Translations under genes and position numbers: made by a program
Shown here: positions 13,215 through 59,809 of the stretch, in pieces
Layout: the number at the start of each line of letters is the position of its first letter
Numbering within the stretch: the stretch's first letter is position 1
From: Squalus acanthias
Lineage: Eukaryota
Direction of reading: 5' to 3'
DNA: 64,000 bases
Assembly: GCA_030390025.1 (NCBI GenBank)
Contig: CM059432.1
Span: forward strand, 42,348,001 to 42,412,000
Notes under the pieces: generated by a model
Database searches by the model: none
What the model was told of the DNA's origin: nothing
The model's input: only the letters and a program-made list of their open reading frames with translations

Positions 13215-13386
13215 TTTAATTTTACATGCATTATATCATGATTGAATTTATAAATTGGGATTGGAATGTGCATTTTTCTGGTGGTTTTTATTCCTGTGTT
13301 GTCGGAAAGAGAACGATGTGATGGTCAGTGATAGAGTAAACGTAAGGAGCGTGGGACTGTTGGTGAATGGGGAGGTGTGGTTGAGG

Positions 13387-20223: not shown

Positions 20224-21398
20224 TCCAGAACCAGGGGTCACAGTCTAAGTATAAGGGGTAAGCCATTTAGGACAGAGATGAGGAGGAAGTTCTTCACCCA
20301 GAGAGTGGTGAACCTGTGGCATTTTCTACCAGAAAAGGCAGTTGAGGCCAATTCATTAAATATATTCAAGAAGGAGTTAGATATATTTCTTAAGGCTAAA
20401 GGGATCAAGGGATATGGGGAGAAAGCAGGGACAGGGTACTGTATTTGGATGATCAGCCATGATCTCATTAAATGGCGGAGCAGGCTCGAGGGGCCGAATG
20501 GCCTATTCCTGCTCCTATCTTATCTGTTTCTATGTTTCAACGTATTCAGGAGTGGGGGGGGGGGAGTTGAGGGGTAGCAAAGAAAGTTGCTGAGGGAAAA
20601 AAGAGACGAAAAAAAGAAACAAATCTGTATGTAGTGTAAGATAAAAAGGGTAGTATTCAGACAACTATCCGTTATAGAATGTCAGAACACACCAGTAACT
20701 GACACCTTCAGGACCCTGGTAAGAGATTTACACCAAAAACACATTTTACAATTTTCCAGCTGGTTCAAAACTAATAGAATGACTGAAAATAGGGCCCTCA
20801 AGGTTGACTATTACTGAACTTAGTTTCTTTTGGGAGTGTTGTCAGTTCTTGGAACTGGCTACTCCACTGAAGCCAGCCATTCAATTTGGGAGCACTGTTT
20901 GACCCAGCTTGACTTTGGCTCAGATCACACCGTCAGGGTGCCCCATTGGCGATGGTAATGGAGGTGACTGTCACCCAACTGTTCATCACGTCCTGCTGCA
21001 AGAGGCTCCATGTTCATAAGTGTCCTGAAATTTAGGGAGATCTAAACTAAGAAAATGTTTTGTTTTCACCCGGTTCAAACCTTACTTCATAGTAGGTAAT
21101 AATTACAGAGGCTGGAATTTTTACCGTGGAGTCGGGTCAGGTGCGTGTGGTCTGCGTAGCGGGTTGGGAATGCGATGTTCTGCTCAGTGCGTTCTTCAGG
21201 GCGACTTTAACTTAATGGCCCCACTTATAGCAGTCATGTGCGTTTCCCGGCCCAATTAAATGGAGTGGGGCTGATGAAGTCATCGATGACTCGTTTCCAG
21301 CACCAATATTTAAAGCAGCCTTGCACACAACTCATTTGAAGGTTGCTAGTGTGGAAGCTGAAATACAAAGGGCTGAGTACTGTTCTAAATTATCAGTG

Positions 21399-23923
21399 AT
21401 GGATAGTCAAAGGCAGAGGGCTGCACCACAATTTTCTGACACATCCCTGCATACTCTGGTGGAGGCAGGGAGAGCACGCAGGGAGGTCGTGTTCCCTGCA
21501 GGTAGGCGCAGGAGACTTCTAAAAGACACCAAAAGAGCCTGGCTGGATATAACAGAGGAGGTCAGCAGCAGGGATGTGGTCAGGAGGAGCAGGATCCAGT
21601 GCAGGAAACTATTCAATGATCTCCTGAGGTCAGGAAAGGTGAGTGCAATGCTACACCCACCTTCATCCTGATGTGCCTGTCACCACATCCACATCACTCT
21701 GCCTTCCCTACCCTACTCCTGCACATCATTCCTCACACCAACATACCTTGCACGTCCACCTATCCCTCTCTCTATGTACATACTCACATCCCCATCGGAC
21801 TAACCACCCCTGACACTCACCCTCATCCTAATGCAATTATAGCAAGTAACACCACAGAAGGAGGCCATTTGGCATTGTCACCCCACTCTCTCGTAGTCAC
21901 CCTATACAGATGTGACCCAACCATTTCTTACATTCATTCCATCACTCTCACTCAAAGTTCTCTTCTTTCCCTCCTTGCAGGAGAAAAGAGCCCATAACAT
22001 GCGGGAGATGCAGAGAACCAGAGGTGGCCCTTCAGTATTCACCCAACTAACACCAGCACAGGTGGGGGCCCTGGAGATATCGGGATTTGCAGAGCTGCTG
22101 GCAGTGGGAGATGGAGAGAGGTGCCCATCCCAACAACCTAGTGACAGAATTACATCTCAATCAGCCACATGGCATACAACAGTCACTCATATGGTGACTG
22201 ACATCAGCAGCCAGTGAAATGTCATCATGTGCATAATGGTAACGTAAGAACATAAGAAATAGGAGCAGGAGTAGGCCATTTGGCCCTTCGAGCCTGCTCC
22301 GCCATTCAATAAGATCATGGCTGATTTTCTACCTCATCTCCACTTTCCTGCACTATCCCCATATCCCTTAATTCCCTTAATATTCAAAAATCTATCGATC
22401 TCTGTCTTGAATATACTCAACGACTGAGCCTCCACAACCCTCTGGGGTAGAGAATTCCAAAGATTCACCACCCTCTGAATGAAGAAATTTCTCCTCATCT
22501 CAGTCCTAAATGGCCGACCCCTTATTCTGAGACTGTGACCCCTGGTTCCAAACTCCCCAGCCATGGGAAACATCCTCCCTGCATCTACCCTGTCAAGTCC
22601 TGTAAGAATTTTGTATGTTTCAATGAGATCACCTCTCATTCTTCTAAACTCTAGAGAATATAGGCCTAGTCTACTCAATCTCTCCTCATAGGACAATCCC
22701 CCCATCCCAGGAATCAGTCTGGTGAGCCTTCGTTCCACTCCCTCTGTGGCAAGTATATCCTTCCTTAGGTAAGGAGACCAAAACTGTACACAATACTCCA
22801 GGTGTGGTCTCACCAGGGCCCTATATAATTGCAGTAAGACGTCTTTACTCTTATACTCAAATCCCCTTGTAATAAGGGCCAACATAACATTTGCTTTCCT
22901 AATTGCTTGCTGTACCTGCATGTTAACTTTCAGTGATTCATGTACAAGGACACCCAGGTCCCTCTGAACACCAACATTTCCCAATCTCTCACCATTTAAA
23001 AAATACTCTGCTTTTCTATTTTCCTACCAAAGTGGATAACTTCACATTTCTCCACATTATATTCCATTTGCCATGTTCTTGCCTATTCACTTAGCCTGTC
23101 TATATCCCCTTGAAGCCTCCTTGCATCCTCCTCATAACTTACATTCCCACCCAGCTTTGTATCATCAGCAAATTTGGATATATTACATTTGGTCCCCTCA
23201 TCCAAATCATTGATGTAGATTATGAATAGCTGAGGCCCAAGCACTGATCCTTGCGGTACCCCACTAGTTACAGCCTGCCAACCCGAAAATGACCCGTTTA
23301 TTCCTACTCTCTGTTTTCTGTCCGTTAACCAATCCTCAATCCATGCTGGTATATTACCGCCAATCCATGAGTCCTAATATTGTTTAATAACCTCTTGTGT
23401 GGCACCTTATCGAATGCCTTCTGAACGTTACCCATTCTTATTATAACACTTCTAATTAATCTCTTTACTCTCCCATTGGTCCATCAAGTGCCCCCCCCCC
23501 CCCACCCACTGTCCCCAGTCAGAGGGTGAAGACGGCTCCTCAGAGGAAGCTTCACCTCTGCAAGGTGCTCTCCAGCTCCTTGCTAGCAGGGAAGTGCGGG
23601 TGGCCCATGAGAGGGATGATGGTGAGAGGGGACATGCAAGTGGGGGCTCTTCTCAAAGCGCTCACACTTCTCCCCCATTGCCTCCCCCTCAGTCAGTGCC
23701 CCACATGCTTCCTCGGATCCCAATGGCCAAGTTTGCCCCTGCACAGACGCAGGAGGAGCAGACTTTGGCGGGGCCATCACAGGCTCCAAAACCCAGAGGA
23801 CGTCTGCCAAAAATGTCTAACGAGTTGCAGCAGGGAAATGAGCAGCCTGCCTCTACTTCTGCTGAAGCTACAGGGGTTGCACCTCGTAGAAGCACTCGGA
23901 AAAGAAAAAAGACACAAAAGTAG
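21399..23923 (+). pseudogene. Harbinger Myb/SANT-like gene, interrupted by CR1
   Basis: Exon 1 21399-21638 (MDSQRQRAAPQFSD..W..IQCRKLFNDLLRSGK|gtgagt). Exon 2 starts at 21981 (ttgcag|EKRAHN). The last-exon remnant ends AGPSQAPKPRGR..RRSTRKRKKTQK*. Confidence 0.8.
22246..23423 (-). mobile_element. 5'-truncated CR1 LINE
   Basis: RT C-terminal ORF 22334-22984 (RDLGV..RPHLEYCVQFWSP..RRMRGDLIETYKI), an (AAGAACAT) tail, and a candidate AACGT TSD at 22241-22245 / 23424-23428. Confidence 0.93.
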
Positions 23924-25706
23924 ATGCACACGGGTATGCACATGGGTGCATGAACAAATGTTACTGTTAAGTTTCAGTTAATTTTGTGACACACATAAAT
24001 GTCTTTTTTTGCACCACTTTCTGGTCTTGTCCATTTTTGCCTGCTACCTTGGAAGCGGTTTTGTCACTTGGAGTGAATGGTGAGACATTACTTAACCTCG
24101 AGCACTGGGGGTTTGGGTGAGAGGAATGGCTGGTCATTGTAGGGATGCTTTATGGTGTTGTTGGGGGGGTAACTTAGTACAGCATGTGGCAGCCATGTGG
24201 CTGCTCTGGAGCAAGTTAAGTAAATCTGGCCATGATGAGGCCATCCTAGGCCTCCCGGGCAGCAATGTGCGCCACTGCTGGTGCCATCTCCACCTCAGGT
24301 TCCTCCTCCTGCTCCTCCTCACTGCTGTGCTATGTTGTGCAGCGCGCAGCAAATGACTATGATTCTGGAGATCCTGGCTGGTGCGTACTGAAGGGCGCCT
24401 CCAGATCTGTCAAGGCATCTGGAGCGCATCATCAGCATGCCTATTGCTTGCTCTATGACACATCTGATGGCATGTGGCTCTCATTATAACGCTCCTCGGC
24501 CTCAGTACTTGGCGTCCTCAAGAGTGTCATGAGCCACGTCTTCAGTGGATAGCCCTTGTCTCCAAACAGCCAGCCGATAAGTCTGTTTGGAGTAGCGAAG
24601 AGCTGAGGGAGGGTGGACTGGCACAACATGAAAGAGTCATGACAGCTGCCAGGGAATCTGCTGCACTCATGCATAATTATCTTTTTATGGTTGCAGACAA
24701 GCTGCACATTGAGGGAGTGGAAGCCCTTGCGGTTCACAAACACTCCTGGGTGATGCGGGGGTGCCTTCATGGCCACATGTGTGCAGTCGATGACGCCCTG
24801 CACCTGTGGGAAGACAGCCAGAACCGCAAAGCCGAGCGCCCGCTCAGTCGTCATCGCGTTGTGTTGCTACACCTTCCCTCGCCACTGTTCCACGCAGGCT
24901 CTGGCTTGAGAGTTGAAGTCCCTCAGATTTTTAGGTCTGCATGGCTGTGGTAGTAGAAGGCATTCTAGGAGATGCTCCATTGTTTGAAATGCCTCTCCGC
25001 AGTCACAGTCGGTAGTATCAATTTGGCTGTATCCCCACTTCTGCATGAGGGCTCTGCAGCAGCCAATACCAGTCCTGAGGCAATTGAGACACAGCCAAGT
25101 AGGCCAAGTCTCACTGGCTCCTGTTGGAAGAGATTCCTCTGTATCAAAAGATAGCTTGTGTGGCTTGTCTGCAGATCCTTTGACCAAGCATCTAGTCTAC
25201 AGCTGTGGGAATTACATTCCAAGGGCTGGACAGCATGTAAGAAACTGCTCCTGGAATTGAGCCTCTTAGTTGCTGGCTCGAATTGAAAAAGTGGATGACG
25301 GGGATCACCTTTCCACTCTTGATGAAACTCGCTTTCTTATGAAAGGTGGGGCAATACCAGCAAGCAGGTAAAGATCATCCACCTTCATAGGTTTCAGGCA
25401 GCCAGAAATAGCACTATGGGCTGCATTGAGGACTGGATCCATCTTCTTGGCATGTGAGGAGCGTTCCCAGACTGGACAGGCATATTCAGCTGCTGAATAG
25501 CACAGGGCAAGGGCAATAGTTTGTAAGGTCCTTGGGTCAGTTTCCCATTTAGAGTTGGACAACTTCCTTAAGAAGTTGTTTCTGGCTCCCACCTTCGACT
25601 TTGCTTTGATGACATGATCTTTGGAGTTGAGGGCACGATCTAATGTTACGCCAAGGTATATTGGCTTAGAGTTGTTTGCCAGTCTTCGCCCATACCACCA
25701 GACATT

Positions 25707-28568: not shown

Positions 28569-29587
28569 CACTCAGTAACACTGGCCTCATCAGTGGCAAA
28601 ATTGATATAATTGGCTGACTTGTAAAACATGGCATCGGTCACCTGGGTGATGCATCTGTGGGCGGCCGACTGTGAGATCCAGCAAATGTCTGTGCAGATC
28701 CCTGGAAGGAGCCTGAGGCGAAGAAGTTGAGGGCGGTGGTGACTTTGACAGCGACTGGCAAGTTGTGTCCACCAGGCCCTCTGGGCCGCAGGTCTTGTTC
28801 CAGCAAGCTACAAATGTCTGCGACGACCTGGCGCCATAGCCTGAGCCTCCTGAAGCACTGCTGCTCAGTCATGCTGAGGAAGCTCATCCTCTGCCTGTAT
28901 ACCCTGTGTTGGGGGTATCGCCTCTGGCACGCTGCAGCCCTGCGGTGGCTCCCTCTCTCCTGTGGAGCATCAGGTCATTGAAGAGAAGGCTGCTGCTGCG
29001 GGTGGTGGGGCTCATCTTGGTCCGATTCTGAGGTGAGACAGTATAAGCAGCACCCATGCTGATGTAGTAGATGGCAGGTAAAGTAGAGATCAGATGGCCA
29101 AGTGGCTTCCGAGGTTGCTGAAATGACCTGCAAACTGCTGACATCTAAATTTGTGGACAAAATGGAGTGAGCAAGAGCCTTTCCATGAGGCAAGTAATGA
29201 GGTGTAATGTTGCAGTATTTATGTGCTTTTCCCAGCTCTCAATGAATGGACTCGCCAATGGCCACTGAGCTTCCGCCTCCCCTTCACAGCCGAGGCGCCC
29301 GAGTGTGTGAATCCTGCGCTCCTGCAGGAAAAATCAAAAGCTGGCATTAAAAACCCTCTTAAGGGTCTCTCAACAAGCAGTGAATGACTTGAATGAGGTC
29401 GCCCGCCTCTGCTGATCGGATTCGTGTCGCGCCTTCAAAGCCGCCCGAGTTAAATGCGTGAGGCGGCGGGATGACGCTCTCGCAATTTACGAGATTTTTA
29501 CTGCCAACCTGCCCCCAAACCTGCATGCTCGGCAATGAGAAAATTCTGGCCAGAGAGTTGTATGCATATGTACTTTCATGCATGTTC

Positions 29588-33299: not shown

Positions 33300-33600
33300 A
33301 GTAAGTGTGATTGGCATTAGGAAGTCTCATTTTAAGGGCCTGGATAAATCTGATAAAGCCCTGCTGTCCAGTCCAGCAAGAGTGTCCATAATTATAGTAG
33401 CTTGCTGCATCCTGCAAAAATTTCACTATATAGAAAGCATTACTCCTTCCTGAAATTGAGGAGCATGATGAAGAAAATGGAGAAGGCCCTCCATCCCTGG
33501 AGCAGAAGGAAGTTTCACAACAGGGATTGGAGATGGAGCAAGACAAGTATCAGCCTGCAGCCAGAGAAAGGAGGCAGCAACTTAATAAAACAAAGTTGGG
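33300..33600 (+). pseudogene. Highly decayed Harbinger transposase C-terminal remnant
   Basis: SPARVSIIIVACCILQ followed by acidic EIEEHDEENGE and AARERRQQL, paralleling SPERVSNFVVVCCMLHN..EEEEDE..ARAVRQRL. Confidence 0.55.
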
Positions 33601-34535: not shown

Positions 34536-34780
34536 ATTAGTTTCTGCCCGAACCATCCCCTTCCCCACACTAGTTGCCTCATTAAGACCAGAATTCCAAA
34601 AGGCATTTGTACCTCACCTCAACAATATAAATCTTGCATTCTCATATTTCATCAGCTCAGACCACGACGTTGCAGCCATCTGGAAAAATGAATTTCGAAG
34701 TCTTTGTAGTCAATCAATTTTTACTTTCCATTATAATATTTTCCAAGTAATTTCAAAAACTAACTACAGTTACCTTTCAG

Positions 34781-34799
34781 TCATAGAGTCATAGTCATA
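34781..34799 (-). repeat. Displaced (ATGACTCT)n-type 3' tail of the CR1 at 41820-43920
   Basis: TCATAGAGTCATAGTCATA is the reverse complement of the tail unit that ends the segment at 39098-39107. Confidence 0.8.
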
Positions 34800-35241
34800 G
34801 GGGGAAAAATTCAGTTGGTTGCGCCTCCCGTTAGCACCTTAAGAGGGCGCTAATGGGGCGCAAAGCCGCTAGCGCCCAGGGCGCAGCGATGTTTGCGCCG
34901 CTGGGGAACTTAACTAGACATTGTGCGGCGGCGCTAAACTTTACCGCCGCGACCACCTGCGCGCGCAGATTGTGACGTCATTCCATGGTGCAACGCCCTT
35001 GTGGCGCCCCGGAGCGGAAATTGAGTGGCGCCCCCTGCCTTACCGCCTGGCGCATCCAACGACCGGAAAACTGGAACGCTATCAATCGCTGTGGGGCTGG
35101 GGGGGCGCTATTTAAAGGGGGCCTCTTCCTGTCTTTTTCTGTGGTTGACATTTTTGCACCACTCGTTCTGAGAGAGAGAGAGAGATTCGGAGAGAGAGAA
35201 AGAGAGACTTCTACATTGAGTCAACGCTTTGTGAGGTAGTT

Positions 35242-36456
35242 TTGCCTACTGATCCTAACTTCGCTGGTACTTTGGTTGCTGTTCTTCATAACTTTGCTTG
35301 CAAAGAGACTATAGGGGCTGCATTGATTGGGGGCGTCGTCCTGCTCCAGCTGAATTGGAGGACACAGAGACGCAGAGAGAGAGTGGCAATGATGGCCAGA
35401 CGGAGGAGGGCCAACAGGCGTATGTACAGGAGAGCTTACCCTCCCAGGGTATATCGTGAACAGCTCTCCTACATTCATATGTCTGAGGAGCTGTGTTTGC
35501 GAAGGCTGCGATTCAGCAAGGAGGTGGTCACTGAGCTCTGCCACCTGCTGCAGCCAGATCTGCAGCCTCAACTGAGGTCCAGTACGTCTCTGTCGGTGGC
35601 AGTGAAGGTCACAGTGGCTCTCAACTTCTATGCTACTGGCTCATTTCAAGCTGCTGCTGGGGACCTCGCCAATATCTCCCAGTTCGCGGTGCATTGCTGC
35701 ATCCGGCAGGTCACAAATGCCCTCTTTAAAAGGAGACGAGAGTTCATCTCTTTCCCCATGACCCTAGACAAGCAGTGTGACCGCGCTCTGGGCTTTGCGA
35801 GGATAGCGGGCTTCCCCATGGTGCAGGGCGCCATTGACTGCACGCATGTGGCTTTGCGTGCTCCACATGAGAATGCCGAGGATTTCCGGAACAGAAAGGG
35901 GTTCCATTCCTTGAATGTTCAGTTGGTCTGTGACCACAGACAGCTGATACTCGCTGTCAATGCCCACTATCCTGGCAGCTGCCACGATGCTTTCATCCTG
36001 CGCCAGACTACTGTGGCAGAACTTTTCGAGGCACCGCATCAGCCAGTTGGTTGGCTTCTCAGGGACAAGGGGTATCCATTGAGCACCTGGCTGATGACAC
36101 CGCTCCGTACGCCCAACACCCCTGCTGAGCTGCGGTACAACGAGAGCCATCAAGCTACCAGGAACATCATTGAGCGCACAATCGGCGTGCTGAAGCAACG
36201 GTTCCGCTGTCTCGACCATTCTGGAGGAGCCCTGCAGTACTCGCCTGAGCGAGTATCCAACTTCGTAGTTGTGTGCTGCATGTTGCATAACATGGCAATC
36301 GTCAGGACCCAGCCAATGCCACCAGGCCTTGGAGCACCACCAGAGGAGGAAGAGGACGAGGCGGATGATCATCAGCAGCACCAAGGCGGGAGGGCGGCCC
36401 ACAATGGTGAAACTGCAAGGGCCGTCCGTCAACGGCTGATAGCAAGCCGCTTCTAG
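35242..36456 (+). CDS. Harbinger (HARBI1-like) DDE transposase, copy A
   Basis: Open frame with the first ATG at 35389. GAIDCTH / LRDKGY / IERTIGVLKQRF form the D-D-E triad, plus [22 protein letters not shown] and CCMLHN. The conserved G before the second D is R here. Confidence 0.93.
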   Translation: MPTDPNFAGTLVAVLHNFACKETIGAALIGGVVLLQLNWRTQRRRERVAMMARRRRANRRMYRRAYPPRVYREQLSYIHMSEELCLRRLRFSKEVVTELCHLLQPDLQPQLRSSTSLSVAVKVTVALNFYATGSFQAAAGDLANISQFAVHCCIRQVTNALFKRRREFISFPMTLDKQCDRALGFARIAGFPMVQGAIDCTHVALRAPHENAEDFRNRKGFHSLNVQLVCDHRQLILAVNAHYPGSCHDAFILRQTTVAELFEAPHQPVGWLLRDKGYPLSTWLMTPLRTPNTPAELRYNESHQATRNIIERTIGVLKQRFRCLDHSGGALQYSPERVSNFVVVCCMLHNMAIVRTQPMPPGLGAPPEEEEDEADDHQQHQGGRAAHNGETARAVRQRLIASRF

Positions 36457-36768
36457 GGCCCCTGCTGTGGAAATGGCTTCTGCCATTGCTAACAACATCA
36501 ATGAACCCAGCACGCAACCCCTGAGCCGGCCAAGGCACCAATGATTCCAAACACCAAACATGTATATTTTGAATACAAAAACTTATTTATTTTACAAACT
36601 CTGTGTGTGTCATTTCCTCATGACAAACTCATAGAAATAAACACAAAAAAACAGTCATTAACATAACTGGTTCTCACAACCTGGAGATAATGTCCAAAAC
36701 ACTAGACAAAAGTTGGACCACGAACCTCGGCCTTTAATAAAAAAATGACCAGCATTTTGTCACACCTC

Positions 36769-38588
36769 CTACTTTTTGCCCTTCGAGGGTGATCTCCTTC
36801 CCTTGCGCACTTCCCCCCTTCTAACCCTACTGCTCCTCCGTAATGGGACCTCAGTGGCTGCAGCAAGGCTGGTGGAAGGCTGCTGATTGTCAGACCCTGA
36901 CACTGCAGATGCCCCTGAAGGACGGCCTCGACCAGTTCTGGGCCTGGAGGGCCCGGCTGCAGACTGCACCAACTCTGCATGGGCGGCAGCAGTCTGTCCT
37001 ACAGGCGGTGGCAAGCGCAGTGGAGAAGTGACAGTGTTGGCAGCAGGAATGCTGTCATCGTGAGAGAGGACAGCAACTCCCTGCTCGACCGACACACTGG
37101 CACTCCCACGGGGCAGCACTTCAGCATCCGGAGCAATCTGCTGGAGCACAGATTGCTGGCCTGCTGCGGCGCGGTGAGAGCCCCGGGGACCTGTGAACGA
37201 ACCATCGAGGTTGGCAGCAGTCAGTGCTCGCGTGGCCTCAATCTGAGTCTGCATGAGAGCAGTCAGAGATGGGATCACGGCAGTCAGTGACTGAATTGCA
37301 GCACTAAGCTTTAGTGTGGCATCCGCCTGTGCTACAGCGAAGTGCTCCACACTCCTTGCCAGTGACTCAATGCATTCGGGCACCCTTCCCACTGCACCCA
37401 TGAGCTCAGTGTGCATGCCCACCGCCTGGGTGTTCATTTCTGCGATCAGCCGCTCCTCCTCTGCGTCCATTGCAGTAGGAGTCTCTGGCATACTCTCCCT
37501 CTGGGGAGAAGGCCCCCGTTCTTCACTACCCCCATGGCGTTGCTGCAGCCCGCTGGGTCCTGGAGCTTCACCCTCATCAGACCCTTCCCCCCTGCTCCCC
37601 TCCAGGGAAGGCGTGTTCCCAGTGTGGGCATGGGCTTTCTCGGGAGAGGGTGGCACTGATGCTCCGGCTTCCTCTTCCTCCTCGGCTGCAGCTTCACTCC
37701 CACTGGCAGCTTCAGGGCCCGTCTCCTCAGCTGGTGAATCACCATCTGAAAGCAGGGAGGTACAAGAGTGGCTTTAGCGTGAGGACAGGGTGGCAGTAAG
37801 GGAGGAATAAGTGCAACGAGTTAGCAAGTTGGATTGAAAGTGTCAAAGGCTGGTGTTGTGAGGGACAAGTGGAAGGACAGAGGATAAAAAGGTGATGACC
37901 TTACCATTGCTGTCCAGAACGGGGTCGGCGTCTCCAGTGGCGACGGGACCGATCACCCGGCTTGCCACAATCCTGTGGACGCGCTCCTCAAGATCGCTGA
38001 GGGGTTGCAGCTGAGGCCGCCCTCCACCTGTCCGTTGCTGCTGTCTCCTATTATGTGCCAGCTTGGCCTGCAAGAAAAAGGACAGCATCTGAGTAAATAT
38101 ACAGCCATGGTCTTGCCTGATGTGCCTCCCATAGGTGAATAGCCCTTACTGTATGCAGCCATGGTCTTGCCTGATGTGCCTCCCATAGGTGAATAGCCCT
38201 TACTGTATGCAAAGTGTGGAATGTGTGTGTGTGTTTCATGAAAGGGCCATAGGTATTGGATGAGTGTTGTGCATTGGGGTTTTAAGACCCTCTGGCCATA
38301 GAGTGAGGTTGAGATGGAGGGATGGAGAGGTATGGAGAAAAAGCCACTCACCCTGACGACCCGAGTGAGGTCGTTGAACTTTTTGCGGCATTGAACATGG
38401 GTCCTGGGCACCATGCTCCTGGAGGAGACGCTCTGAGCCACCTCCCTCCACATTCTTCTGTACTCGCGTGGCAAAGGCCTCCTGCCACTCTCAGGGAAGA
38501 GTATAGATCTTCTGCGCTCCACCGCGCCAACCAGAGCATCCAAGGCCCGCTCGGTGAAGCGCTGAGCTCGTTCTCTCACCCTCTCCAT
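36769..38588 (-). CDS. Harbinger Myb/SANT-like DNA-binding protein, 3 exons, predicted 458 aa
   Basis: Exons 38588-38352, 38067-37905 and 37745-36769 with canonical GT-AG introns (phase 0, phase 1). The spliced length is 1377 nt, in frame to TAG. The N-terminus RF...LDALV...W.EVA...QCRKKFNDL is a trihelix/Myb motif. Confidence 0.9.
38102..38209. repeat. Exact 54-bp tandem duplication in Myb gene intron 1
   Basis: CAGCCATGGTCTTGCCTGATGTGCCTCCCATAGGTGAATAGCCCTTACTGTATG x2. Confidence 0.95.
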
Positions 38589-38949
38589 CCTTGGCTGCAA
38601 AATGGATTCACAGGTCTCTCCAGGCCGAGATTCAAGGCTGCAATGAGCAGGGTGTGGCTGGGGAGCAAGTTGGCCCCCCCTCCCTTTAAGAACTGGCCGG
38701 CGCCAGTTGTGTCTATGTTCCCTCGCTAACTGGCAGCACCTGCGCTGCGCTCGCGCGCTGAGTTAGCGCCTCACTGCTCGGCCTTTGCGCCTTAAGACAG
38801 GTGTGCAGCGCCTGATTTAGCGCACCACTCACCTCCCGGGGCGGTAAAAGTGAAGTTTCCAGTCAGTGGCGATAATTAGCGCCAGGCGCTAATTTTTGCG
38901 TCCAGACGATATTTGCGCCCCAAACGGGGCGCGACCTAATTTTTCCCCC

Positions 38950-39107
38950 TCAATGTTTTCAAGGGGAGAATGGATAAGCACTTGAGGGAAATAAACTTGC
39001 AGGGCTACGGGGATAGAGCGGGGGAATGGGACTGACTGGATTGCTCTAGAGAGCCAGCATGGACTCGATGGGCCGAATGGCCTCCTCCTGTGCCGTTATG
39101 ACTCTAT
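38950..39107 (+). mobile_element. Inverted 158-bp piece of the CR1 3' end
   Basis: CR1 ORF2 end and 3' UTR (GGGCCGAATGGCCTCCTCCTG..TTATGACTCTAT) lie on +, while the rest of the element lies on - on both sides. Confidence 0.9.
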
Positions 39108-39128
39108 GGGGGAAAAATTAGGGAGAGT

Positions 39129-39851
39129 ATGCCAGCGACTCCTACTGCAATGGACGCAGAGGAGGAGCGGCTGATCGCAGAAATGAACACCCAGGCGGTG
39201 GGCATGCACACTGAGCTCATGGGTGCAGTGGGAAGGGTGCCCGAATGCATTGAGTCACTGGCAAGGAGTGTGGAGCACTTCGCTGTAGCACAGGCGGATG
39301 CCACACTAAAGCTTAGTGCTGCAATTCAGTCACTGACTGCCGTGATCCCATCTCTGACTGCTCTCATGCAGACTCAGATTGAGGCCACGCGAGCACTGAC
39401 TGCTGCCAACCTCGATGGTTCGTTCACAGGTCCCCGGGGCTCTCACCGCGCCGCAGCAGGCCAGCAATCTGTGCTCCAGCAGATTGCTCCGGATGCTGAA
39501 GTGCTGCCCCGTGGGAGTGCCAGTGTGTCGGTCGAGCAGGGAGTTGCTGTCCTCTCTCACGATGACAGCATTCCTGCTGCCAACACTGTCACTTCTCCAC
39601 TGCGCTTGCCACCGCCTGTAGGACAGACTGCTGCCGCCCATGCAGAGTTGGTGCAGTCTGCAGCCGGGCCCTCCAGGCCCAGAACTGGTCGAGGCCGTCC
39701 TTCAGGGGCATCTGCAGTGTCAGGGTCTGACAATCAGCAGCCTTCCACCAGCCTTGCTGCAGCCACTGAGGTCCCATTACGGAGGAGCAGTAGGGTTAGA
39801 AGGGGGGAAGTGCGCAAGGGAAGGAGATCACCCTCGAAGGGCAAAAAGTAG
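39129..39851 (+). pseudogene. Truncated Myb-like gene (3' part of exon 3 only)
   Basis: A 240-aa ATG-initiated ORF identical, except one residue, to the C-terminal part of the 36769-38588 product. The DNA-binding exons are deleted. Confidence 0.85.
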
Positions 39852-40163
39852 GAGGTGTGACAAAATGCTGGTCATTTTTTTATTAAAGGCCGAGGTTCGT
39901 GGTCCAACTTTTGTCTAGTGTTTTGGACATTATCTCCAGGTTGTGAGAACCAGTTATGTTAATGACTGTTTTTTTGTGTTTATTTCTATGAGTTTGTCAT
40001 GAGGAAATGACACACACAGAGTTTGTAAAATAAATAAGTTTTTGTATTCAAAATATACATGTTTGGTGTTTGGAATCATTGGTGCCTTGGCCGGCTCAGG
40101 GGTTGCGTGCTGGGTTCATTGATGTTGTTAGCAATGGCAGAAGCCATTTCCACAGCAGGGGCC

Positions 40164-41378
40164 CTAGAAGCGGCTTGCTATCAGCCGTTGACGGACGGCC
40201 CTTGCAGTTTCACCATTGTGGGCCGCCCTCCCGCCTTGGTGCTGCTGATGATCATCCTCCTCGTCCTCTTCCTCCTCTGGTGGTGCTCCAAGGCCTGGTG
40301 GCATTGGCTGGGTCCTGACGATTGCCATGTTATGCAACATGCAGCACACAACTACGAAGTTGGATACTCGCTCAGGCGAGTACTGCAGGGCTCCTCCAGA
40401 ATGGTCGAGACAGCGGAACCGTTGCTTCAGCACGCCGATTGTGCGCTCAATGATGTTCCTGGTAGCTTGATGGCTCTCGTTGTACCGCAGCTCAGCAGGG
40501 GTGTTGGGCGTACGGAGCGGTGTCATCAGCCAGGTGCTCAATGGATACCCCTTGTCCCCGAGAAGCCAACCAACTGGCTGATGCGGTGCCTCGAAAAGTT
40601 CTGCCACAGTAGTCTGGCGCAGGATGAAAGCATCGTGGCAGCTGCCAGGATAGTGGGCATTGACAGCGAGTATCAGCTGTCTGTGGTCACAGACCAACTG
40701 AACATTCAAGGAATGGAACCCCTTTCTGTTCCGGAAATCCTCGGCATTCTCATGTGGAGCACGCAAAGCCACATGCGTGCAGTCAATGGCGCCCTGCACC
40801 ATGGGGAAGCCCGCTATCCTCGCAAAGCCCAGAGCGCGGTCACACTGCTTGTCTAGGGTCATGGGGAAAGAGATGAACTCTCGTCTCCTTTTAAAGAGGG
40901 CATTTGTGACCTGCCGGATGCAGCAATGCACCGCGAACTGGGAGATATTGGCGAGGTCCCCAGCAGCAGCTTGAAATGAGCCAGTAGCATAGAAGTTGAG
41001 AGCCACTGTGACCTTCACTGCCACCGACAGAGACGTACTGGACCTCAGTTGAGGCTGCAGATCTGGCTGCAGCAGGTGGCAGAGCTCAGTGACCACCTCC
41101 TTGCTGAATCGCAGCCTTCGCAAACACAGCTCCTCAGACATATGAATGTAGGAGAGCTGTTCACGATATACCCTGGGAGGGTAAGCTCTCCTGTACATAC
41201 GCCTGTTGGCCCTCCTCCGTCTGGCCATCATTGCCACTCTCTCTCTGCGTCTCTGTGTCCTCCAATTCAGCTGGAGCAGGACGACGCCCCCAATCAATGC
41301 AGCCCCTATAGTCTCTTTGCAAGCAAAGTTATGAAGAACAGCAACCAAAGTACCAGCGAAGTTAGGATCAGTAGGCAA
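40164..41378 (-). CDS. Harbinger (HARBI1-like) DDE transposase, copy B
   Basis: Open frame with the first ATG at 41231. IDCTH, canonical LGDKGY and IERTIG are present. It differs from copy A at two residues. Confidence 0.95.
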   Translation of the reverse strand: MPTDPNFAGTLVAVLHNFACKETIGAALIGGVVLLQLNWRTQRRRERVAMMARRRRANRRMYRRAYPPRVYREQLSYIHMSEELCLRRLRFSKEVVTELCHLLQPDLQPQLRSSTSLSVAVKVTVALNFYATGSFQAAAGDLANISQFAVHCCIRQVTNALFKRRREFISFPMTLDKQCDRALGFARIAGFPMVQGAIDCTHVALRAPHENAEDFRNRKGFHSLNVQLVCDHRQLILAVNAHYPGSCHDAFILRQTTVAELFEAPHQPVGWLLGDKGYPLSTWLMTPLRTPNTPAELRYNESHQATRNIIERTIGVLKQRFRCLDHSGGALQYSPERVSNFVVVCCMLHNMAIVRTQPMPPGLGAPPEEEEDEEDDHQQHQGGRAAHNGETARAVRQRLIASRF

Positions 41379-41819
41379 AACTACCTCACAAAGCGTTGAC
41401 TCAATGTAGAAGTCTCTCTTTCTCTCTCTCCGAATCTCTCTCTCTCTCTCAGAACGAGTGGTGCAAAAATGTCAACCACAGAAAAAGACAGGAAGAGGCC
41501 CCCTTTAAATAGCGCCCCCCCAGCCCCACAGCGATTGATAGCGTTCCAGTTTTCCGGTCGTTGGATGCGCCAGGCGGTAAGGCAGGGGGCGCCACTCAAT
41601 TTCCGCTCCGGGGCGCCACAAGGGCGTTGCACCATGGAATGACGTCACAATCTGCGCGCGCAGGTGGTCGCGGCGGTAAAGTTTAGCGCCGCCGCACAAT
41701 GTCTAGTTAAGTTCCCCAGCGGCGCAAACATCGCTGCGCCCGGGCGCTAGCGGCTTTGCGCCCCATTAGCGCCCTCTTAAGGCGCTAACGGGAGGCGCAA
41801 CCAACTGAATTTTTCCCCC

Positions 41820-43920
41820 TGAGTGTCTCCTCTTCCACCACTTCCGTCGGTAGCGAGTTCCAGGTCCTCACCACTCGCTACGTAAAAAAGATTTTCCTCA
41901 CATCCCCCCTGTATCTCTTGCCCAAAACCTTAAATCTGTGTCCCCTAGTCCTTTTACCATCAACTAGTGGGAACAGCCTTTCACCGTCTAACCTATCCAA
42001 ACCCATCATAATCTTGTACACCTCTATCAAATCACCTCAACTTCCTTTGCTCTAATGAAAACAAATCCAGCTTCTCCAACCTGTCCTTGCAGCTAAGATC
42101 CCCCATCCCTGGAACCATTCTAGTAAATCTCCTCTGCACCCTCTCAAGGGCCTTCACATCCTTCCTAAAGTGTGGTGACCAGAACTGGACGCAATACTCC
42201 CAATCGATATTTGGGTAATTAAAGTCCCCTAATATCACCACTCTAAAGCTCTTGCATATCCCTGCGATTTCCCTGCAGATTTGCTCCTCTACCTCCCTCT
42301 CACTAATTGGAGGCCTGTAGAATACCCATAATAGCGTGATCATACCATTTTTGCTCCTCAACTCTAACCAAATGGATTCTGTCCTTGTCCCCTCAAGAAC
42401 ATCCTCCCTTTCCAACACTACAATGTCTTCCTTAATCAGCACTGCCACCCCACCTCCCTTTTTCCCTTCCCTATCTTTTCTGAACACCTTGTACCCTTGA
42501 ATATTAAGTGCCCCGTCCTCACCGTTTTTAAGCCACGCTTCTGTTATTGCCACAACATCATATTGTCACACGGCTAATTGTGCTTGTAGCTCACTAACCT
42601 TATTCACCACACTTTGGCGTTTATGTACATGCATTCTAAACCCATTTCTGAATTTTTCATAGTCTTTCTTAGTCTGTTTCTATCTAATATGGTACTACTT
42701 CCACCTCTACTACTACTTTCTTCTCTAGTACTATCCAACACACTCACTCTTTTATACACTTTATTCCTCTTTTCTACTCCTATATGCTGGTGCCCATCCC
42801 CCTGCCAAGTTAGTTTAAACCCTCCCCAACAGCACTAGCAAATCTTCCCATGAGAATATTGGTCCCGGCTCTGTTGAGGTGTAACCCATCCAGCTTGTAC
42901 AGGTCCCACTTTCCCCAGAAACGGTCCCAATGCTTCAGGAATCTAAAGCCCTCCCTCCTGCATCATCTCTCCAGCCACACATTCATCTGTTCTATCCTTC
43001 TATTCCTGTACTCATTAGCACGTGGCACCGGGAGTAATCCGGAGATTACTACCTTTGAGGTCCTACTTTTTAATCTCTCTCCTAGCTCCCTAAACTCTGC
43101 CTGCAGGACCTCATCCCTCTTTCTGCCTATGTCGTTGGCAATGTTGGACAACGACCTCTGACTGTTCACCCTCCCCCCTCAGAGTGTCCTGCAGCTGCTC
43201 AGTGACATACTTGACCCTGGCACCAGGGAGACAACATACCATCCTGGAGTCACGTCTGCGGCCGCAGAAACGCCTGTCTGCTCCCCTAACTATCGAATCC
43301 CCTATGACTATTGCTCTTCCACTCTTTTTCCTCCCTCCCGTGCAGCTGAGCCACCCTTGGTGCCGTGGACTTGTCTCTGGCTGCATGCCCCAGAGGAACC
43401 ATTGCCCTCACCAGTACTCAGAACACAATACTAGTTGGAGAGCGAGACGCACTCCGGGGACTCCTGCACTACCTGCCTGGTCCTCCTCTTCTGTCTGGCG
43501 GTCACCCATTCTCTCACTGCCTGCATGCTCTTAAGCTGCGGGGTGACCACATCCTGAAATGTGCTATCCACGTAACTCTCGGCCTCGCGGATGCACCGCA
43601 GTGACTCCAGCTGCTGCTCAAGCTCCGAAACACGGATCTCAAGCTGCCGTAGCTGGTGACACTTCCTGCATATGTGGTCGTCCAGGACTTCCCACATGGC
43701 ACAGGATGTGCACTGCACGGGACTGAGCTGCCCTGCCATGCCTCTATTTAATAGACTTAGCAGAAATAAACTTAAAACTTAAAAAGAAACACTCACCAGC
43801 TACTCACCAATCAGCTCCTTCCCTTGTGCCGACATCACTTTTTCTACTCTGATGTCACTCTTTCGAATTCTGCCTCTATTGAGTTGCTGCCTCTCTCGCT
43901 CTGCTCCCGCCCAGGTCCAC
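41820..43920 (-). mobile_element. CR1 LINE with 5' UTR and ORF1 and a large ORF2 deletion; 3' end disrupted by the Harbinger pair
   Basis: ORF1 starts at 43739 (CTSC..CRKC, IGDSIVRG). The endonuclease (ITEAWL..GDFNYPNIDW) is fused directly to the post-RT EYCVQFWSPH at ~42200. Confidence 0.92.
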
Positions 43921-55087: not shown

Positions 55088-57899
55088 CAAAGACTGTATA
55101 TGTTTGTAACCATAGAGTCATTATTAATGTTTGAGCTTGGCGGCTTATTATATATGTATAAGAAACTATAGCCTAGAAATTACTGATGCAGATATTAGCG
55201 AACAAATAATTCATGCATTCATATGACATTCCTCTATTTAATATTAGAGCAGAAGAATTAATCCATTTAAAATAAGTAGATTGAGCCCTGTGTTAAAATA
55301 GCAGATGAAGGAATGCCATATAAACACATGGGCAAGATTACATCCAACCAACAAACTTGGCATAAACATTTGAAAACTGACGATCCCTGTGGCAAAGAAG
55401 TTTCGCATCTCTTTGGATTGAAGGCCGCTTGCAGAGCGAGAGAGAGAGCAGAAGGGATCCAAGTTGAGATGTAAAGTTCCGTTACTCAATTAAATTAAAT
55501 GGTAAGTCAATTAAATTAAAAAGAAACATAATTTAAAATCATTACTAGTTAGTGCGTAATTTTTTATATAGATTATGATTTAAATATTTCTGCAAAAAAT
55601 CTGTTGCATCACTTCTTCGCAATAATTAAAAAAATAGAAAAAGTGAATAGCTGCTTTTGCATCCAAAGTACAGCAAGCATCCACTGATTTCACATCGATT
55701 GCTAATGGTTCTCTCTTATATCTGCCAAGATGGTGCTGGATCTTCTGAGGTGTCACATTCACCTGAACCTGTAAACATTGGCAAACACTTCACTGTTGTA
55801 GTGTTTGATTAAGATGAGGCTTTATGATTAATCTACCCAGCCCCACTCTGCTTAAATATCTATTATCCAGCATCTTTATAAATGTCACCCTTTTAAAGTG
55901 ATGGAGGTGCTTCCTGTGTTTCTCATCATCCTTGGTACTTTGTACAGATAGTTTTCTCAGTGATAATTTCAGGGTTAATTTGTGTGGCAGCCCATTCTAT
56001 CCTCTTTGCTTTTAACCAAAAAATTAAATTCTTACTCACTGAATATGAATTTCATGTATTTTGGCATTGCAAATCATTTTAATATATTTACTTCCAGCCA
56101 ACACTAAGCCACACTCAAGTGCTTCATTTTCAGCTATCAAAGTTATTTAATTTGTAGCTTTATTTCATTGAATGGCTTAACTCACCATTTGCGTTACCTT
56201 GGAACAAATGTGGAAAACAGCTTTTGTATGGGTTTGTGATACTCTGCACTGTTTGCGCATGGTTAATGTAATGAGCCTGTGCGTAGCTGGATTTTTCTCT
56301 TAATTTTTTACATAGAATAGAAATCCTTAGCAGCGTTTTCTAGAAAGCCTGCTCTCATGAATTCTCCAACACACTGCACCACAACGTATTAGAACTCAGG
56401 TCTGTGCCTGTGATTTCCCACACAGTGAGCTCCGGATTTCAAATGTGCCACCTCGGGCTATTGCCATCTGGAGGCCAGGCATTTCAACATGGGGGCGCCA
56501 GGAGAGGGGGGGAGGGGAACTACAAGGCCGATAGTTCCACAAAAACGATAGGTCCTATAGGAAGCAATGGTGAATTATCATTCTGGCAACATCCCACAGC
56601 TAGTTGTGAATGGAAGCCCAGAAATATACAAAGCAGCAAGTCTATGAAGGGCCACAGGTGAAGGGAAGCAGGTCACAAATAGCTCCAGGGCCATGTTATG
56701 AGCTTTATATCCACACAGAAGATGATACAGGACAAAATTAAGGAGAGTTATTCTTTACAAGAGGGAAAGCAGCTTTTAAAGAGGGAGGCTCCCCACCACC
56801 GCTAATTTTTAAAACAAGATACAAATGATTAGGATTAAAAGGAAATAACAGTACAGTGTAAGTACTTCGATTGCACTTATTCCCTTGTGTACGCTCTTTA
56901 CTTTCTTTAAAGATATCTGCCAGCAGCATTGAGGATTCTGTTTATACATTTCCATCTACATTGCAGCAGCCTATGTGTTTGCATTTTTGTAGTTCGTGAA
57001 GTGATGACGTAATGGAGGAGAAATAGGTATGGAGTTTGATTAGGTGTTGCTATTTGCTTTCCAAAATCCGACCATACGCAGACACGTTTAGCTACATTCC
57101 CAACGAACCAACAGCAATACCTGTCCCATTGCTACAGTTGTGAAAGATAAAAAACAGCACCTCATCAGTACAGAAACATCAAAATTCAGTCTTTTTGGTA
57201 GATGACTTCATGCCAATCCTTCTCTGTAAAGACATCATTCCACTGACTGGAATTAAGTGCAGGCTCATATAGAATAGCAGTTCACTACAGAAATTCTTTA
57301 AGGCTGATGACAGGTTTTAAAAGAAAATGCAAAGCAGATGTATGGAGTTCATTGCATTCAGTTTTATATGATAAATACTTATCTTACTCTGACATTTTCT
57401 TTAATTTTAATTTTATTTTGGGGGGGATTTTAACTGCGAGCTGGATTTAAATGAAGCCCAGGAGTTAATATACCCCTGGTCTCATGTTTGGAGTGACTTT
57501 TTAACTCACACCACTGCTCACCTGCCCAAACCATTTAAAATCAGGGGGGGAAAATTGGGTATCGCCCATTTTGGGCGTTAATATCAGCCGGGTGCAAAGT
57601 TTAGCCCCCGGTGCTAATTATCGCCGCCGATCGCGAAATTCGTCTTCAGCGCCCCGGAGGTGATTTGAGCGCTAAATCAAGCGCTACACACCTCTCTTAG
57701 AGCGCTAACATTGGGGAGCGAGGCGCTACCTCAGAGCGCTACTCAAGCTCCGGCGATGTCAATTACCTTGTATCCAGACAGACTGGCGCCTTCCAGTTCT
57801 TAAACGGGAGGGTCCATCTTGCTGCACAGCCGCACCCTGATCATTGCAGCGTTTAGCCTCGGGCTGCAAGCAGGTAAAAATATTCCTCAAACATTTGTG

Positions 57900-59809
57900 A
57901 TGGATACTCAGAGGCCCAGGGAGAGAGCTCAGTGCTTTAGTGACCAGGCATTGATGGCTCTGGTTGGCGCAGTTGAACGGCGACGGGCAGTGCTCTTTCC
58001 AGAGAGTGCCAGGAGGCCATTGCCCCGCGAGTTGAGAAGAGTCCGGAGGGAGGTGGCCCAGCATGTGTCATCGCGGAGCCTGGTGCCGAGGACGCATACA
58101 CAGTGTCGTAAAAAGTTCAACGACCTCACTCGGGTGGTCAGGGTTAGTACCTGCTTTTCAATACTTCTACATCCCACCATCTCAACCTCACTCTGTGCCC
58201 AGACGGTGTAAATACACAAATGCCCAACACTCATCCAACAACTATGGCCATTTCATAAAAGTCACATGCACATCCCACACCTTGCACACATTAGCGGCAA
58301 TTCAACTATGGTAGGCACATCTGCCAAACACATGGCTGCACACTCACTCACATGCTGTCCTTTTTCTTGCAGGCCAAGCTTTCACATAACCGCCAAGAGC
58401 AACAGTGGATGGGAGGAGGACAGGCGGAGCTGCACCCCCTCACATAATTGGAGGAAGAGTCCACAGTCTCATTACGAGCCAGGTAGTAGGCACTGTGGCT
58501 GTTGGAGAGGTTGATTCCCTTGGGGACAGCAATGGTATGTTCATCAGCTTTCTCTCCTCTCTCATATCACTTCCCCCTCACAACACCAGCCTTTTACACT
58601 TTCAATCTAACTATACTGTCTCCATTCCTTGCTCTCTTCCTGTCTCCCTGCCCTCGTGCTAAAGCCACTCTTGTACCTTCCTGCTTTCAGATAGTGATCT
58701 ACCAGCTGAGCAGCCTGTCCCTCAACCAGCCAGTGGCAGCGACACACTAGAGGAGGAGGAAGAGGAAGCCAGAGCCTCACCACCTGCGTCTCCCGAGGGT
58801 GACACTTCCGACACTGGGGCCACGCGGTCACTGAAGGGGAGCAGGGGGTTTGCATCTGATGTGGGTGAAGCTCCGGGACCCAGCGGGCTGCAGCAACACC
58901 ATGGGGGAAGGGAAGCTCGGGGGCCATCTCCCCGGAGGGTGAATGCGCGGATGAGTTCTGCTGCACAGGACTCGGATGAGGACCTCGATATAGCGGTCAT
59001 GAATACTCAGGCTCTGAGCATGCATACGGAGCTCATGGGTGCAATGGCAAGGGTGCCCGACAGCATAGATGTACTGGCTAGGAGTGTGGAGGAGTCCGCC
59101 GCCAGCACAGCTGTCATCTGTGGAAACCCTTGAACCCATCCTTACCTCATTGCAGAGGATGGTTGAATTACAGGGAGACCATGGGGACCCAGAGCCCATG
59201 CCACGTGTAATGGGTGAGGTGGGAGGATCTATTGCAGCACAGGCCGACGCAACGCAAAGGCTTAGTGCTGCATTCGAGTCATTGGCTGGTGCCATCCAGT
59301 CTCAGACTGTTCTCATGCAGTCTCAGATTGATGCCATGCAAGCGCTGACTGCTGCCATCATCTCTGGGTCGCCCACAGTCCACCGGGGATCTGACGGTGC
59401 CGCAGCAGGCCAGCAATCTGTGCTCGAGCAGATTGCTCCGGATGCTGAGGTGCTGCCCCGTGGGAGTGCCAGTGTGTCGGTCGAGCAGGAAGGTGCTGTC
59501 CTCTCTCAGGATGACAGCATTCCTGCTCCCACCACTGCCACTTCGCCATTGCACTTGCCACAGCCTGTAACCCAGCCAGCCCAGACTGCTGCCGCCCATG
59601 CAGAGTTGGTGCAGTCTGCAGCCGGGCCCTCCAGGCCCAGAGCTGGTCGAGGGCCTCCTTCAAGGCCATCTGCAGTCTCTGGATCTGAGATTCAGCAGCC
59701 TTCCACCAGCCTTGCTGCAGCCACCGGAGCCACATTACAGAGGAGCAGTAGGGTTGGGAGGGGGGAAGTGTGCAGGGGATGGAAATCGCCCTCGAGGGCC
59801 GAAAAGTAA
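57900..59809 (+). pseudogene. Harbinger Myb/SANT-like gene, 3 exons, frameshifted
   Basis: Exons 57900-58142, 58373-58534 (1 nt shorter than the intact copy) and 58691-59809 (frameshift at ~59110), with the same splice positions as 36769-38588. Confidence 0.88.

Follow-up and report, generated by a model that had tools for sequence, protein, structure and literature searches.

The elements closest to the locus described here are two-gene PIF/Harbinger elements such as zebrafish Harbinger3_DR, which was rebuilt from a consensus (as cited in PMC2836001, PMC9710019 and PMC9392472). In the accessible text of these sources, this type combines a DDE_Tnp_4 transposase with a separate Myb/SANT gene, GGG ends, a 3-bp target duplication, a subterminal motif and a near-palindromic 15-bp target. 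Such elements require both proteins, which may come from separate sources (PMC2836001, PMC9710019, as excerpted). Harbinger-Snek is reported, in the part of the paper available, as 269 fully intact copies in the sea krait Laticauda colubrina (PMC8437027), and naturally intact vertebrate Harbingers, which the original prediction held to be of interest as genome-engineering tools, are thus already described. P element hybrid insertion, maize Ac/Ds sister-chromatid transposition and the Galileo inversions are described, again in excerpts, as leaving near-identical copies in opposite orientation around an inversion, with exchanged duplications and no loss of the flanks (PMC2775673; bioRxiv 10.1101/2020.01.07.897926). 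In rice, mPing/Ping ends lie at structural-variant breakpoints that the accessible text blames on aberrant transposition, and one 120-kb inversion is flanked by mPing (PMC7584900, PMC5724284). Among the matches listed in a literature search on alternative and hybrid transposition, P, Galileo, Ac/Ds and mPing were found and no vertebrate Harbinger, a weak negative since few subscription papers were covered.

The window, a stretch of 64,000 nucleotides of Squalus acanthias DNA (contig CM059432.1, forward strand, 42,348,001 to 42,412,000), contains at 34797-41822 two near-identical Harbinger-type copies in inverted orientation around a 158-bp spacer. The span first proposed, 35242-41378, contained two real copies and cut off both outer ends. 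Copy A (34800-38949, plus strand) was recognized from its ends, length and Pfam content as a full-length two-gene element of 4150 bp, and copy B (39108-41819, minus strand) from its ends and the alignment of the arms as its inverted sister of 2712 bp. The locus shows the DDE_Tnp_4 transposase, the short terminal repeats of GGG type and the 3-bp target duplication of PIF/Harbinger (PHIS) elements, the Myb gene being found in copy A only. It differs from Harbinger3_DR in its target triplets, TCA and TAT rather than CWG, and in its shark lineage. The CWG target of NuwaI (PMC4482050, in part) is likewise not found, and the NuwaII target C-TNA-G given in the same text compares with C-TCA-A at the first shark site and C-TAT-G at the second, two sites only.

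All four element ends start with GGGGGAAAAATT. The left terminal inverted repeat of copy A (GGGGGAAAAATT..., 34800-34815, plus strand) matches the right end at 14 of 16 bases and is followed by a subterminal region (34816-35110, plus strand) in which GGCGCTAA/GGCGCAAA-type motifs recur and a TATA-like TATTTAAA lies at 35109. The 8-mer GGCGCTAA occurs in copy A twice at the left, three times at the right and never in the interior, and GGCGCAAA twice, twice and never; these subterminal motifs may be sites for the Myb protein. Six motifs stand with the right terminal inverted repeat of copy A at 38765-38949 (minus strand), none of which is kept in copy B, where an AGG microhomology connects the 15-bp right terminal repeat with a point midway in Myb exon 3. 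This deletion joint was not among the joints listed (15 of 59) for the four sequencing runs compared.

Analysis of the ends showed that the target triplets are exchanged between the copies. ATA at 34797-34799 (plus strand), outside copy A, is one half of a target duplication completed by TAT at 39105-39107, and TGA at 41820-41822 (plus strand), outside copy B, pairs with TCA at 38950-38952. The two partners form the edges of the spacer (38950-39107, plus strand), which comes from the 3' end of a CR1, and flipping these 158 bp restores one colinear CR1 fragment, whose upstream part lies at 41823-42060 (minus strand) and whose tail lies left of 34797. In an empty-site test by dynamic-programming alignment to the CR1 copies of the window, the flipped spacer out-scored both the assembled orientation and the best of 100 shuffles against all five copies. 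The rebuilt site aligned through both junctions with no host DNA lost or duplicated, at about 65-70% identity, where small losses could escape; across the spacer, BLAST of the rebuilt empty site gave no more than short matches. The TCA site is near-palindromic over 15 bp (AGACAC TCA ATGTTT), and the TAT site belongs to the repeated tail of the CR1. The four distinct junctions, with their two matching triplet pairs, rule out a fold-back sequencing artefact.

The opposite orientation, the exchanged duplications and the preserved flanks are those of the P, Ac/Ds and Galileo cases. The shark locus differs from them in belonging to another superfamily, in a vertebrate, in the small size of the inversion (158 bp), in the deletion, probably later, of one copy and in that the event is deduced from one haplotype. 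It shares with rice the PIF/Harbinger ends at the breakpoints, although the 120-kb rice inversion was assigned, in the accessible text, to template switching among clustered copies and not to hybrid insertion (PMC7584900, PMC5724284).

The inverted arms are 2702 bp long and 99.815% identical, the five differences (four substitutions and one indel) being scattered without a divergent block. Copy A differs from the closest family contig pieces at 73 of 5021 bases (1.45%), a value drawn from the best 17 of 24 listed pieces (runs X10, X14 and X17), the other seven, at 5-9%, being set aside. Were the copies independent, and no more than 0.5% from the family, 27 differences would be expected, and the probability of five or fewer is 3e-7. 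The contigs compared covered 34600-39119 of the window (copy A, the spacer and the short end of copy B) in 4 of 23 listed runs, of which X1 and X17 are DNA and X10 and X14 were guessed to be RNA, as their splice joint supports. Positions at which all four runs had a different letter, at 80% of depth or more, were counted as departures from the family; copy B carried the letter of copy A at 10 of 11 such arm sites (40 of 315 rows listed), and the shared departures run from 35283 to 37191. Since the arms differ at only 5 of 2702 positions while the family distance is about 1.45%, the two copies appear to be sisters derived from one already mutated element.

On balance it seems probable that the locus arose by sister-chromatid (hybrid-element) insertion in one step, followed by decay. 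An ordinary member of an abundant shark PIF/Harbinger-type family would have inserted at TCA in the CR1 3' end and accumulated mutations, which include, as comparison with the family indicates, the loss of its start ATG. After replication, the family transposase may have combined the right end on one chromatid with the left end on its sister, and the hybrid would then have entered the TAT site of the CR1 tail, at a distance of 155 bp. One such step would yield two identical inverted copies, exchanged triplets and a flipped spacer without loss of host DNA; hybrid insertion from one site is described, in excerpts, as giving an inversion, exchanged duplications and identical flanking copies (PMC2775673). 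Copy B would afterwards have lost the Myb domain and the right subterminal region by microhomology deletion, and copy A would have acquired Arg in place of Gly, next to the catalytic Asp, through a CpG change. The deletion probably postdates the insertion, as copy B is without all six right-end motifs. Copy B is deleted and not identical to copy A, which requires an extra step under any account.

Arms of 2.7 kb that are nearly identical and 1.6 kb apart are a good substrate for recombination, and this favours a second route, in which the element, or a derivative of it with the deletion, was copied to TAT in reverse orientation, or an insertion of separate origin there was homogenised with copy A by conversion, the centre being subsequently inverted by crossing over between the arms. 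In one haplotype, a local hop with crossover, or gene conversion between neighbours, yields the same final structure. Exchanged triplets are a signature of ectopic recombination as well, for which the excerpted source describes chimeric flanking copies (PMC2775673). This route needs two or three events against one, the arm differences are spread out rather than gathered in a divergent block, and conversion must have covered nearly the whole arm, as the shared departures indicate; we regard it as possible and rather doubtful. It too amounts to ordinary decay without cooperation. Against the one-step reading, Ping in plants showed no preference for local targets in the accessible text (PMC7584900).

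Near-identical inverted arms of 2.7 kb are also a known assembly hazard, and no contig in the four runs compared spans the locus or a whole arm. The central 1.6 kb (37501-39119) might accordingly be misoriented, or the five differences otherwise phased; such a misassembly would place a full, G-bearing element at TCA and the deleted one at TAT. The five distinct differences and the four junctions with proper triplets suggest reads of phasing length, and an error of this kind is unlikely.

Both transposase frames match PF13359 (DDE_Tnp_4), with E 3.4e-39 in copy A and 1.4e-40 in copy B, and hold the D, D, E triad. As first reported, the motif reads WLLRDKGY in copy A and WLLGDKGY in copy B, and all three older copies of the window that keep it have GDKG (matches at 13845, 24575 and 60544). 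The difference is due to an A at 36061 (plus strand) in copy A only, a CpG-type change that puts Arg ahead of the second catalytic Asp. Gly is the family residue, by run depth and in 102 of the 116 homologues having a residue there, and Arg is rare, occurring in 1 of the 51 homologues that keep all three catalytic residues.

At the family start codon (35311-35313, plus strand; 41309-41307 in copy B), from which the transposase counts 381 codons, both copies have ATA. The family letter is G, which accounts for 339334.9 of a depth of 339369.8 in X1 and for the entire depth in X10, X14 and X17, and Met stands there in 68 of 71 aligned homologues. Five further non-family replacements are shared by both copies; the motif aside, the transposase of copy B is not canonical. 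The inversion itself stood, as very likely did a former element with Gly and the whole Myb gene at TCA/TGA. Rejoining the halves would not give the fully intact element that had been expected, because both arms share the ATA start and the non-family residues. Neither copy holds both genes and both ends complete, copy A having both genes, though with Arg at 36061 and without the family start, and copy B having no Myb domain and no right subterminal motifs. Unlike Harbinger-Snek, compared here by its description in excerpts, neither is intact by the start codon of its own family.

Downstream ATGs at 35389 and 35392, the second in good context, open frames of 355 and 354 residues with the triad. 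The frame from the first available ATG lies at 35389-36456 (plus strand) in copy A, and that of copy B, with LGDKGY, at 41231-40164 (minus strand); judged from the frame, a 355-residue product is possible. The loss of the start removes 26 residues and with them the greater part of the helix predicted at the N-terminus (H2-38). Two fish-type homologues, P0082 and P0105, have equally short N-termini, with 74-75 residues before the FYATGS motif as against 79. The transposase of copy B is therefore not demonstrably dead. A search of solved structures by sequence gave no match, and Foldseek gave nothing at E 0.001, just weak DDE transposases and integrases.

The Myb-like gene of copy A was found as first described. 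Its exon 1 (38588-38352), exon 2 (38067-37905) and exon 3 (37745-36769), all on the minus strand, join into a stop-free frame of 458 residues across GT..AG introns of 284 and 159 nt, with Myb_DNA-bind_5 (PF13873, E 9.9e-10) in exon 1. The predicted splicing was observed for intron 2, whose joint 37745/37905 occurs in contigs of both RNA-like runs (X10, X14) and of neither DNA run (X1, X17), and the 159-nt intron is spliced as predicted in family transcripts. The intron-1 joint 38352/38067, which was not among the joints listed (15 of 59), rests on homologue alignments: donor 38352 gives a gap-free alignment of 109 residues to P0008. An alternative donor at 38358 was ruled out by its lower bit score in 14 of 14 homologues. 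Copy B lacks the Myb domain together with exons 1 and 2, as first described, and its loss is larger, taking in 245 of the 977 nt of exon 3 and the six right-end motifs; a frame of 240 residues (39129-39851, plus strand) is left, in which Pfam finds no DNA-binding domain. Residues 60-220 of exon 3 had no homologue at E 0.001. The complex prediction for the N-terminal 140 residues of the transposase with the exon-3 helical region scored 0.00 and gave no answer.

It had been proposed that the transposase of copy B and the Myb protein of copy A form a two-component autonomous unit that can be rejoined to an intact element. The open Myb frame of copy A, the triad and LGDKGY of copy B, the downstream ATG and the separate supply known for such proteins (PMC2836001, PMC9710019, as excerpted) speak for it. 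Against it, the family start and with it 26 residues are gone in both arms, and the Myb protein is reported to import the transposase through the N-terminal end of the latter (PMC9392472, citing Sinzelle 2008, in the accessible text). Six transposase positions and four Myb positions are off the family, and the RNA-like contigs carry family letters there, never locus-private letters at the listed sites, which is not proof of absence because contigs drop rare variants. Because the family is both very abundant and transcribed, there is no need for complementation between neighbours; proteins in trans can come from any member, nothing singles out these two, and whatever copy A required to move would more simply have come from elsewhere in the family. 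Such a unit is very unlikely. Both copies look like ordinary decaying copies and not a hidden intact element, and very probably no cooperating pair exists here; their complementary look is a by-product of decay, through two ordinary later lesions.

Both arms retain the left end and the TATA-like site, pointing inwards, and it might be imagined that read-through, starting at the transposase promoter of one copy and entering the opposite arm, gives a 2.7-kb hairpin RNA repressing the family, like the maize Mu killer and Ac killer alleles. In excerpts, Ac/Ds is silenced in trans by inverted duplications that arose through transposition between sister chromatids (bioRxiv 10.1101/2020.01.07.897926). 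The transposase frame is followed by AATAAA signals, at 36636 and 36736, that stand 2.4 kb before the second arm, and the contigs compared do not support transcription of the locus; a silencer is highly improbable. The composite reading, a hybrid insertion by a vertebrate Harbinger whose hairpin RNA of 2.7 kb silences the competent family in trans in the manner of Mu killer, is scarcely credible.

The Harbinger family is very abundant and not a single locus. In X1 (55% of the run) 44,842 family contig records were found, whose summed depth reached at least 269,991 in each bin of the element, compared with 34.8 for the unique flank, a figure that is not a copy number; the left-flank contig of this run ends at 34789. 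Runs from two organisms, their RNA type being guessed, show transcription and splicing of the family, which by majority letter retains both the start codon and LGDKGY. A tool may accordingly be sought in the family. The locus, which departs from it at the start codon and about ten other residues, is a poor source; what it offers is a neat natural example, from the germ line of a vertebrate, of an inversion made by Harbinger ends.

If the insertion did occur in one step, cutting by the family transposase was still going on at a time when the two arms did not differ, much later than the family distance of 1.45% suggests. The divergence per arm is 0.09%, and the epaulette shark rate of 7e-10 per base per generation, given with a wide interval in the accessible text (PMC10587355), places the split of the arms roughly 1.3 million generations ago, a crude value given that the species may differ and CpG-rich DNA mutates faster. 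The near-identity of the arms does not show present activity. The best protein matches were from Pristiophorus japonicus, with 72% identity.

Copy A (34800-38949, 4150 bp, full-length) and copy B (39108-41819, minus strand, 2712 bp) are separated by a spacer of 158 bp, and all four of their ends start with GGGGGAAAAATT. Two genes lie in copy A, a plus-strand one for a DDE_Tnp_4 transposase and a minus-strand one for a Myb/SANT protein; by the features tested, the element is a PIF/Harbinger (PHIS) transposon. The closest protein matches (best 120 of 429) were shark and ray models annotated as 'putative nuclease HARBI1', the top one at 72% identity. The original prediction, which is confirmed in part, had given copy A an open Myb frame, and its exons indeed form 458 codons with no stop. 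In copy B the 15-bp right terminal repeat is fused via an AGG microhomology to a point 245 nt into Myb exon 3, and none of the six right-end subterminal motifs of copy A was found there. The arms, i.e. the aligned parts common to both copies, showed 99.815% identity over 2702 bp, the differences being substitutions at 34837, 36061, 36362 and 37484 and a single indel at 34878. Neither copy qualifies as an autonomous element. Within intron 1 of the Myb gene of copy A, at 38105-38210, about 52-54 bp are duplicated in tandem. Copy B retains a 240-aa plus-strand frame (39129-39851) of the C-terminal part of the Myb protein with its own ATG, lacking the DNA-binding domain and any obvious promoter; this piece might possibly play a dominant-negative role if ever expressed.

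The target triplets of the two copies are swapped, the TCA after copy A corresponding to the TGA after copy B, and the TAT before copy B to the ATA before copy A. The site was rebuilt by placing the spacer, flipped, between the right and the left flank, and scored against the five copies in the window of CR1, the host retroelement whose 3' end holds both transposons. The rebuilt site is one CR1 3' end, with scores of 202.5, 195, 211.5, 176.5 and 211, versus 133, 142.5, 132, 105.5 and 120.5 for the assembled orientation and 155, 169.5, 161, 131.5 and 154.5 for the best of 100 spacer shuffles. The swapped triplets and the higher scores of the rebuilt CR1 support the inversion well for this assembly, as had been predicted. 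No independent contig spanning the inversion was found among those of the sequencing runs X1 and X17 (DNA) and X10 and X14 (taken as RNA). The TCA site (41823-41828 with 38950-38958), with the sequence AGACAC TCA ATGTTT, is a 15-bp target close to a palindrome; in the CR1 tail, the TAT site agrees with this target on one side only.

The arginine of copy A results from a CpG-type change at 36061. The letter G accounts for 696776.7 of the 697313.4 depth in X1 and for all depth in X10, X14 and X17; among 120 homologues compared, 116 have a residue at this site (102 glycine, 6 arginine), and of the 51 that retain the complete D-D-E triad, 46 have glycine and one has arginine. Run depth and homologues thus identify glycine as the family residue, and not arginine, the outcome that was to have counted against the original prediction. 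In a confident structural model (mean pLDDT 89.6) G251 is placed at the end of a strand directly before the catalytic Asp; neither sequence match nor Foldseek found a close solved structure for the transposase.

The position of the family start codon is ATA in both copies (35311-13 in A, 41309-07 in B), and ATG in older copies of the window near 61048 and 14590. G at 35313 makes up essentially all depth in the four runs, and Met occupies the start in 68 of 71 aligned homologues, many of which are automatic gene models, Met-initiated by construction. Departures from the family were counted among the 40 best-supported of 315 difference rows, and in 17 of these 40 a letter other than that of copy A made up 80% or more of the depth in each of the four runs. 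Eleven of the 17 lie within the shared arm, copy B carrying the letter of copy A at ten. The transposase codons changed in both copies are the start, 16, 91, 152, 156 and 331 (numbered from the family start), and the Myb codons changed in copy A are 170, 207, 319 and 377. All of these changes would be present in a rejoined element; with six transposase codons altered, among them the family ATG lost from both arms, and four Myb codons altered, the claim that re-inversion yields a fully intact element is unsupported. Downstream ATGs at 35389 and 35392 open transposase frames of 355 and 354 aa. Equally short N-termini in the homologues P0082 and P0105 count against impairment; impairment of the short form is plausible, since the 26 missing residues make up the greater part of a helix predicted at residues 2-38, and since the Myb protein reportedly works via the N-terminal end of the transposase (PMC9392472, citing Sinzelle et al. 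2008).

Runs from six or more organisms contain near-identical sequence, with 46-80% of the sampled words present. From about 55% of X1, 44,842 contig records were aligned, and the summed depth, which is not a copy number, was at least 269,991 in every element bin versus 34.8 on unique flank; such depth cannot stem from one locus. The predicted intron-2 joint 37745/37905 (159 nt, CT..AC on the plus strand) occurs in family contigs of X10 and X14, from two organisms and two studies, and is absent from the DNA runs X1 and X17. At the listed sites the spliced contigs have the letters of the family, so they show transcription and splicing of the family, not of this locus. Both PIF/Harbinger proteins work in trans (PMC2836001, PMC9710019), so that copy A could be served by any expressed family member, and copy B would gain no special role from adjoining it. 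The proposed complementation of the two copies is accordingly unsupported. The majority family letters come from separate sites and are no proof of one fully intact single copy.

The element and contigs of X14 and X17, from other organisms, are about 98.5% identical over stretches of hundreds of bases (one X17 contig has 7 differences over 750 bp); a slow clock in sharks, horizontal transfer and carry-over of DNA are all possible causes. An X1 contig of depth 47.1 joins the right end to the left end (38950 to 34800) with 10 letters between, as head-to-tail copies or an excised circle would. Another X1 joint (35137 to 38815) skips 3677 bases, and summed depth is greater at both element ends than in the middle; these observations point to short non-autonomous derivatives.

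Copies A and B diverge by 0.19%. Of the 24 contig pieces listed for X10, X14 and X17, the 17 closest differ from copy A at 73 of 5021 bases (1.45%, a figure leaving out seven pieces at 5-9%); by this comparison the two copies are sisters or have been homogenised. Their near-identity favours a one-step route, in which, after replication, the right end of the element from one chromatid and the left end from the sister chromatid would have been taken together and inserted as hybrid ends at TAT, 155 bp away, in a single event. The joins, as we traced them, would give the order flank, element, inverted spacer, inverted element and tail, and would separate the members of both triplet pairs in the way seen here. 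This outcome has been described for hybrid element insertion, with identical copies, versus chimeric copies in ectopic recombination (PMC2775673). The pair might also have arisen by local copying and a subsequent crossover, or by conversion; the sequence favours one-step hybrid insertion, which would explain all features. The deletion in copy B, which removed the right subterminal motifs, probably came later than the insertion, and the glycine-to-arginine change in copy A would also have followed it. By the one-step route, an element with the glycine and the whole Myb gene would once have stood at the TCA/TGA site, in line with the original prediction, but with its start codon already gone. 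At the four polarisable arm differences the form in copy B is the commoner or the older one: it is commoner in three of four runs at 34878, in all four at 36061 and in three of four at 37484, and at 36362 it is that of the older copy near 60 kb. The derived changes thus seem to sit in copy A, which may be chance.

The target CWG of NuwaI differs from the TCA and TAT found here, and C|TNA|G of NuwaII agrees at half, judged from two sites only (definitions in PMC4482050). Harbinger-Snek is reported to have one-gene variants as well as 269 copies that are fully intact (PMC8437027), and zebrafish Harbinger3_DR, rebuilt from a consensus, was mobile in human cells (cited in PMC2836001). Transcription of teleost Harbingers is documented in PMC9179366, which found none in elephant shark; the available part of PMC11304231 adds nothing on Harbinger tools. 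Rearrangements at PIF/Harbinger ends are known in rice (PMC7584900, PMC5724284), and in maize Ac/Ds is silenced by inverted duplications that arose through sister-chromatid transposition (bioRxiv 10.1101/2020.01.07.897926); by analogy the A/B inverted repeat might silence its family in trans, at low probability. The locus is a fresh instance of a known element type and a known rearrangement type, of modest interest as an inversion in a vertebrate that was probably Harbinger-made.

The window contains at least six older Harbinger-related pieces (57544-61060, 11300-14610, 21231-24866, 28598-28926, 2623-2797, 33307-33423 and 6900-7433), whose similarity ranges from 76% identity to weak matches at the protein level. 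The piece at 57.5-61 kb lacks its left end, and its transposase is interrupted by a stop and has lost an internal segment. A Myb-like protein conserved in many sharks and rays (P0121-P0132), about 46% identical to exon 1, has the appearance of a domesticated relative.
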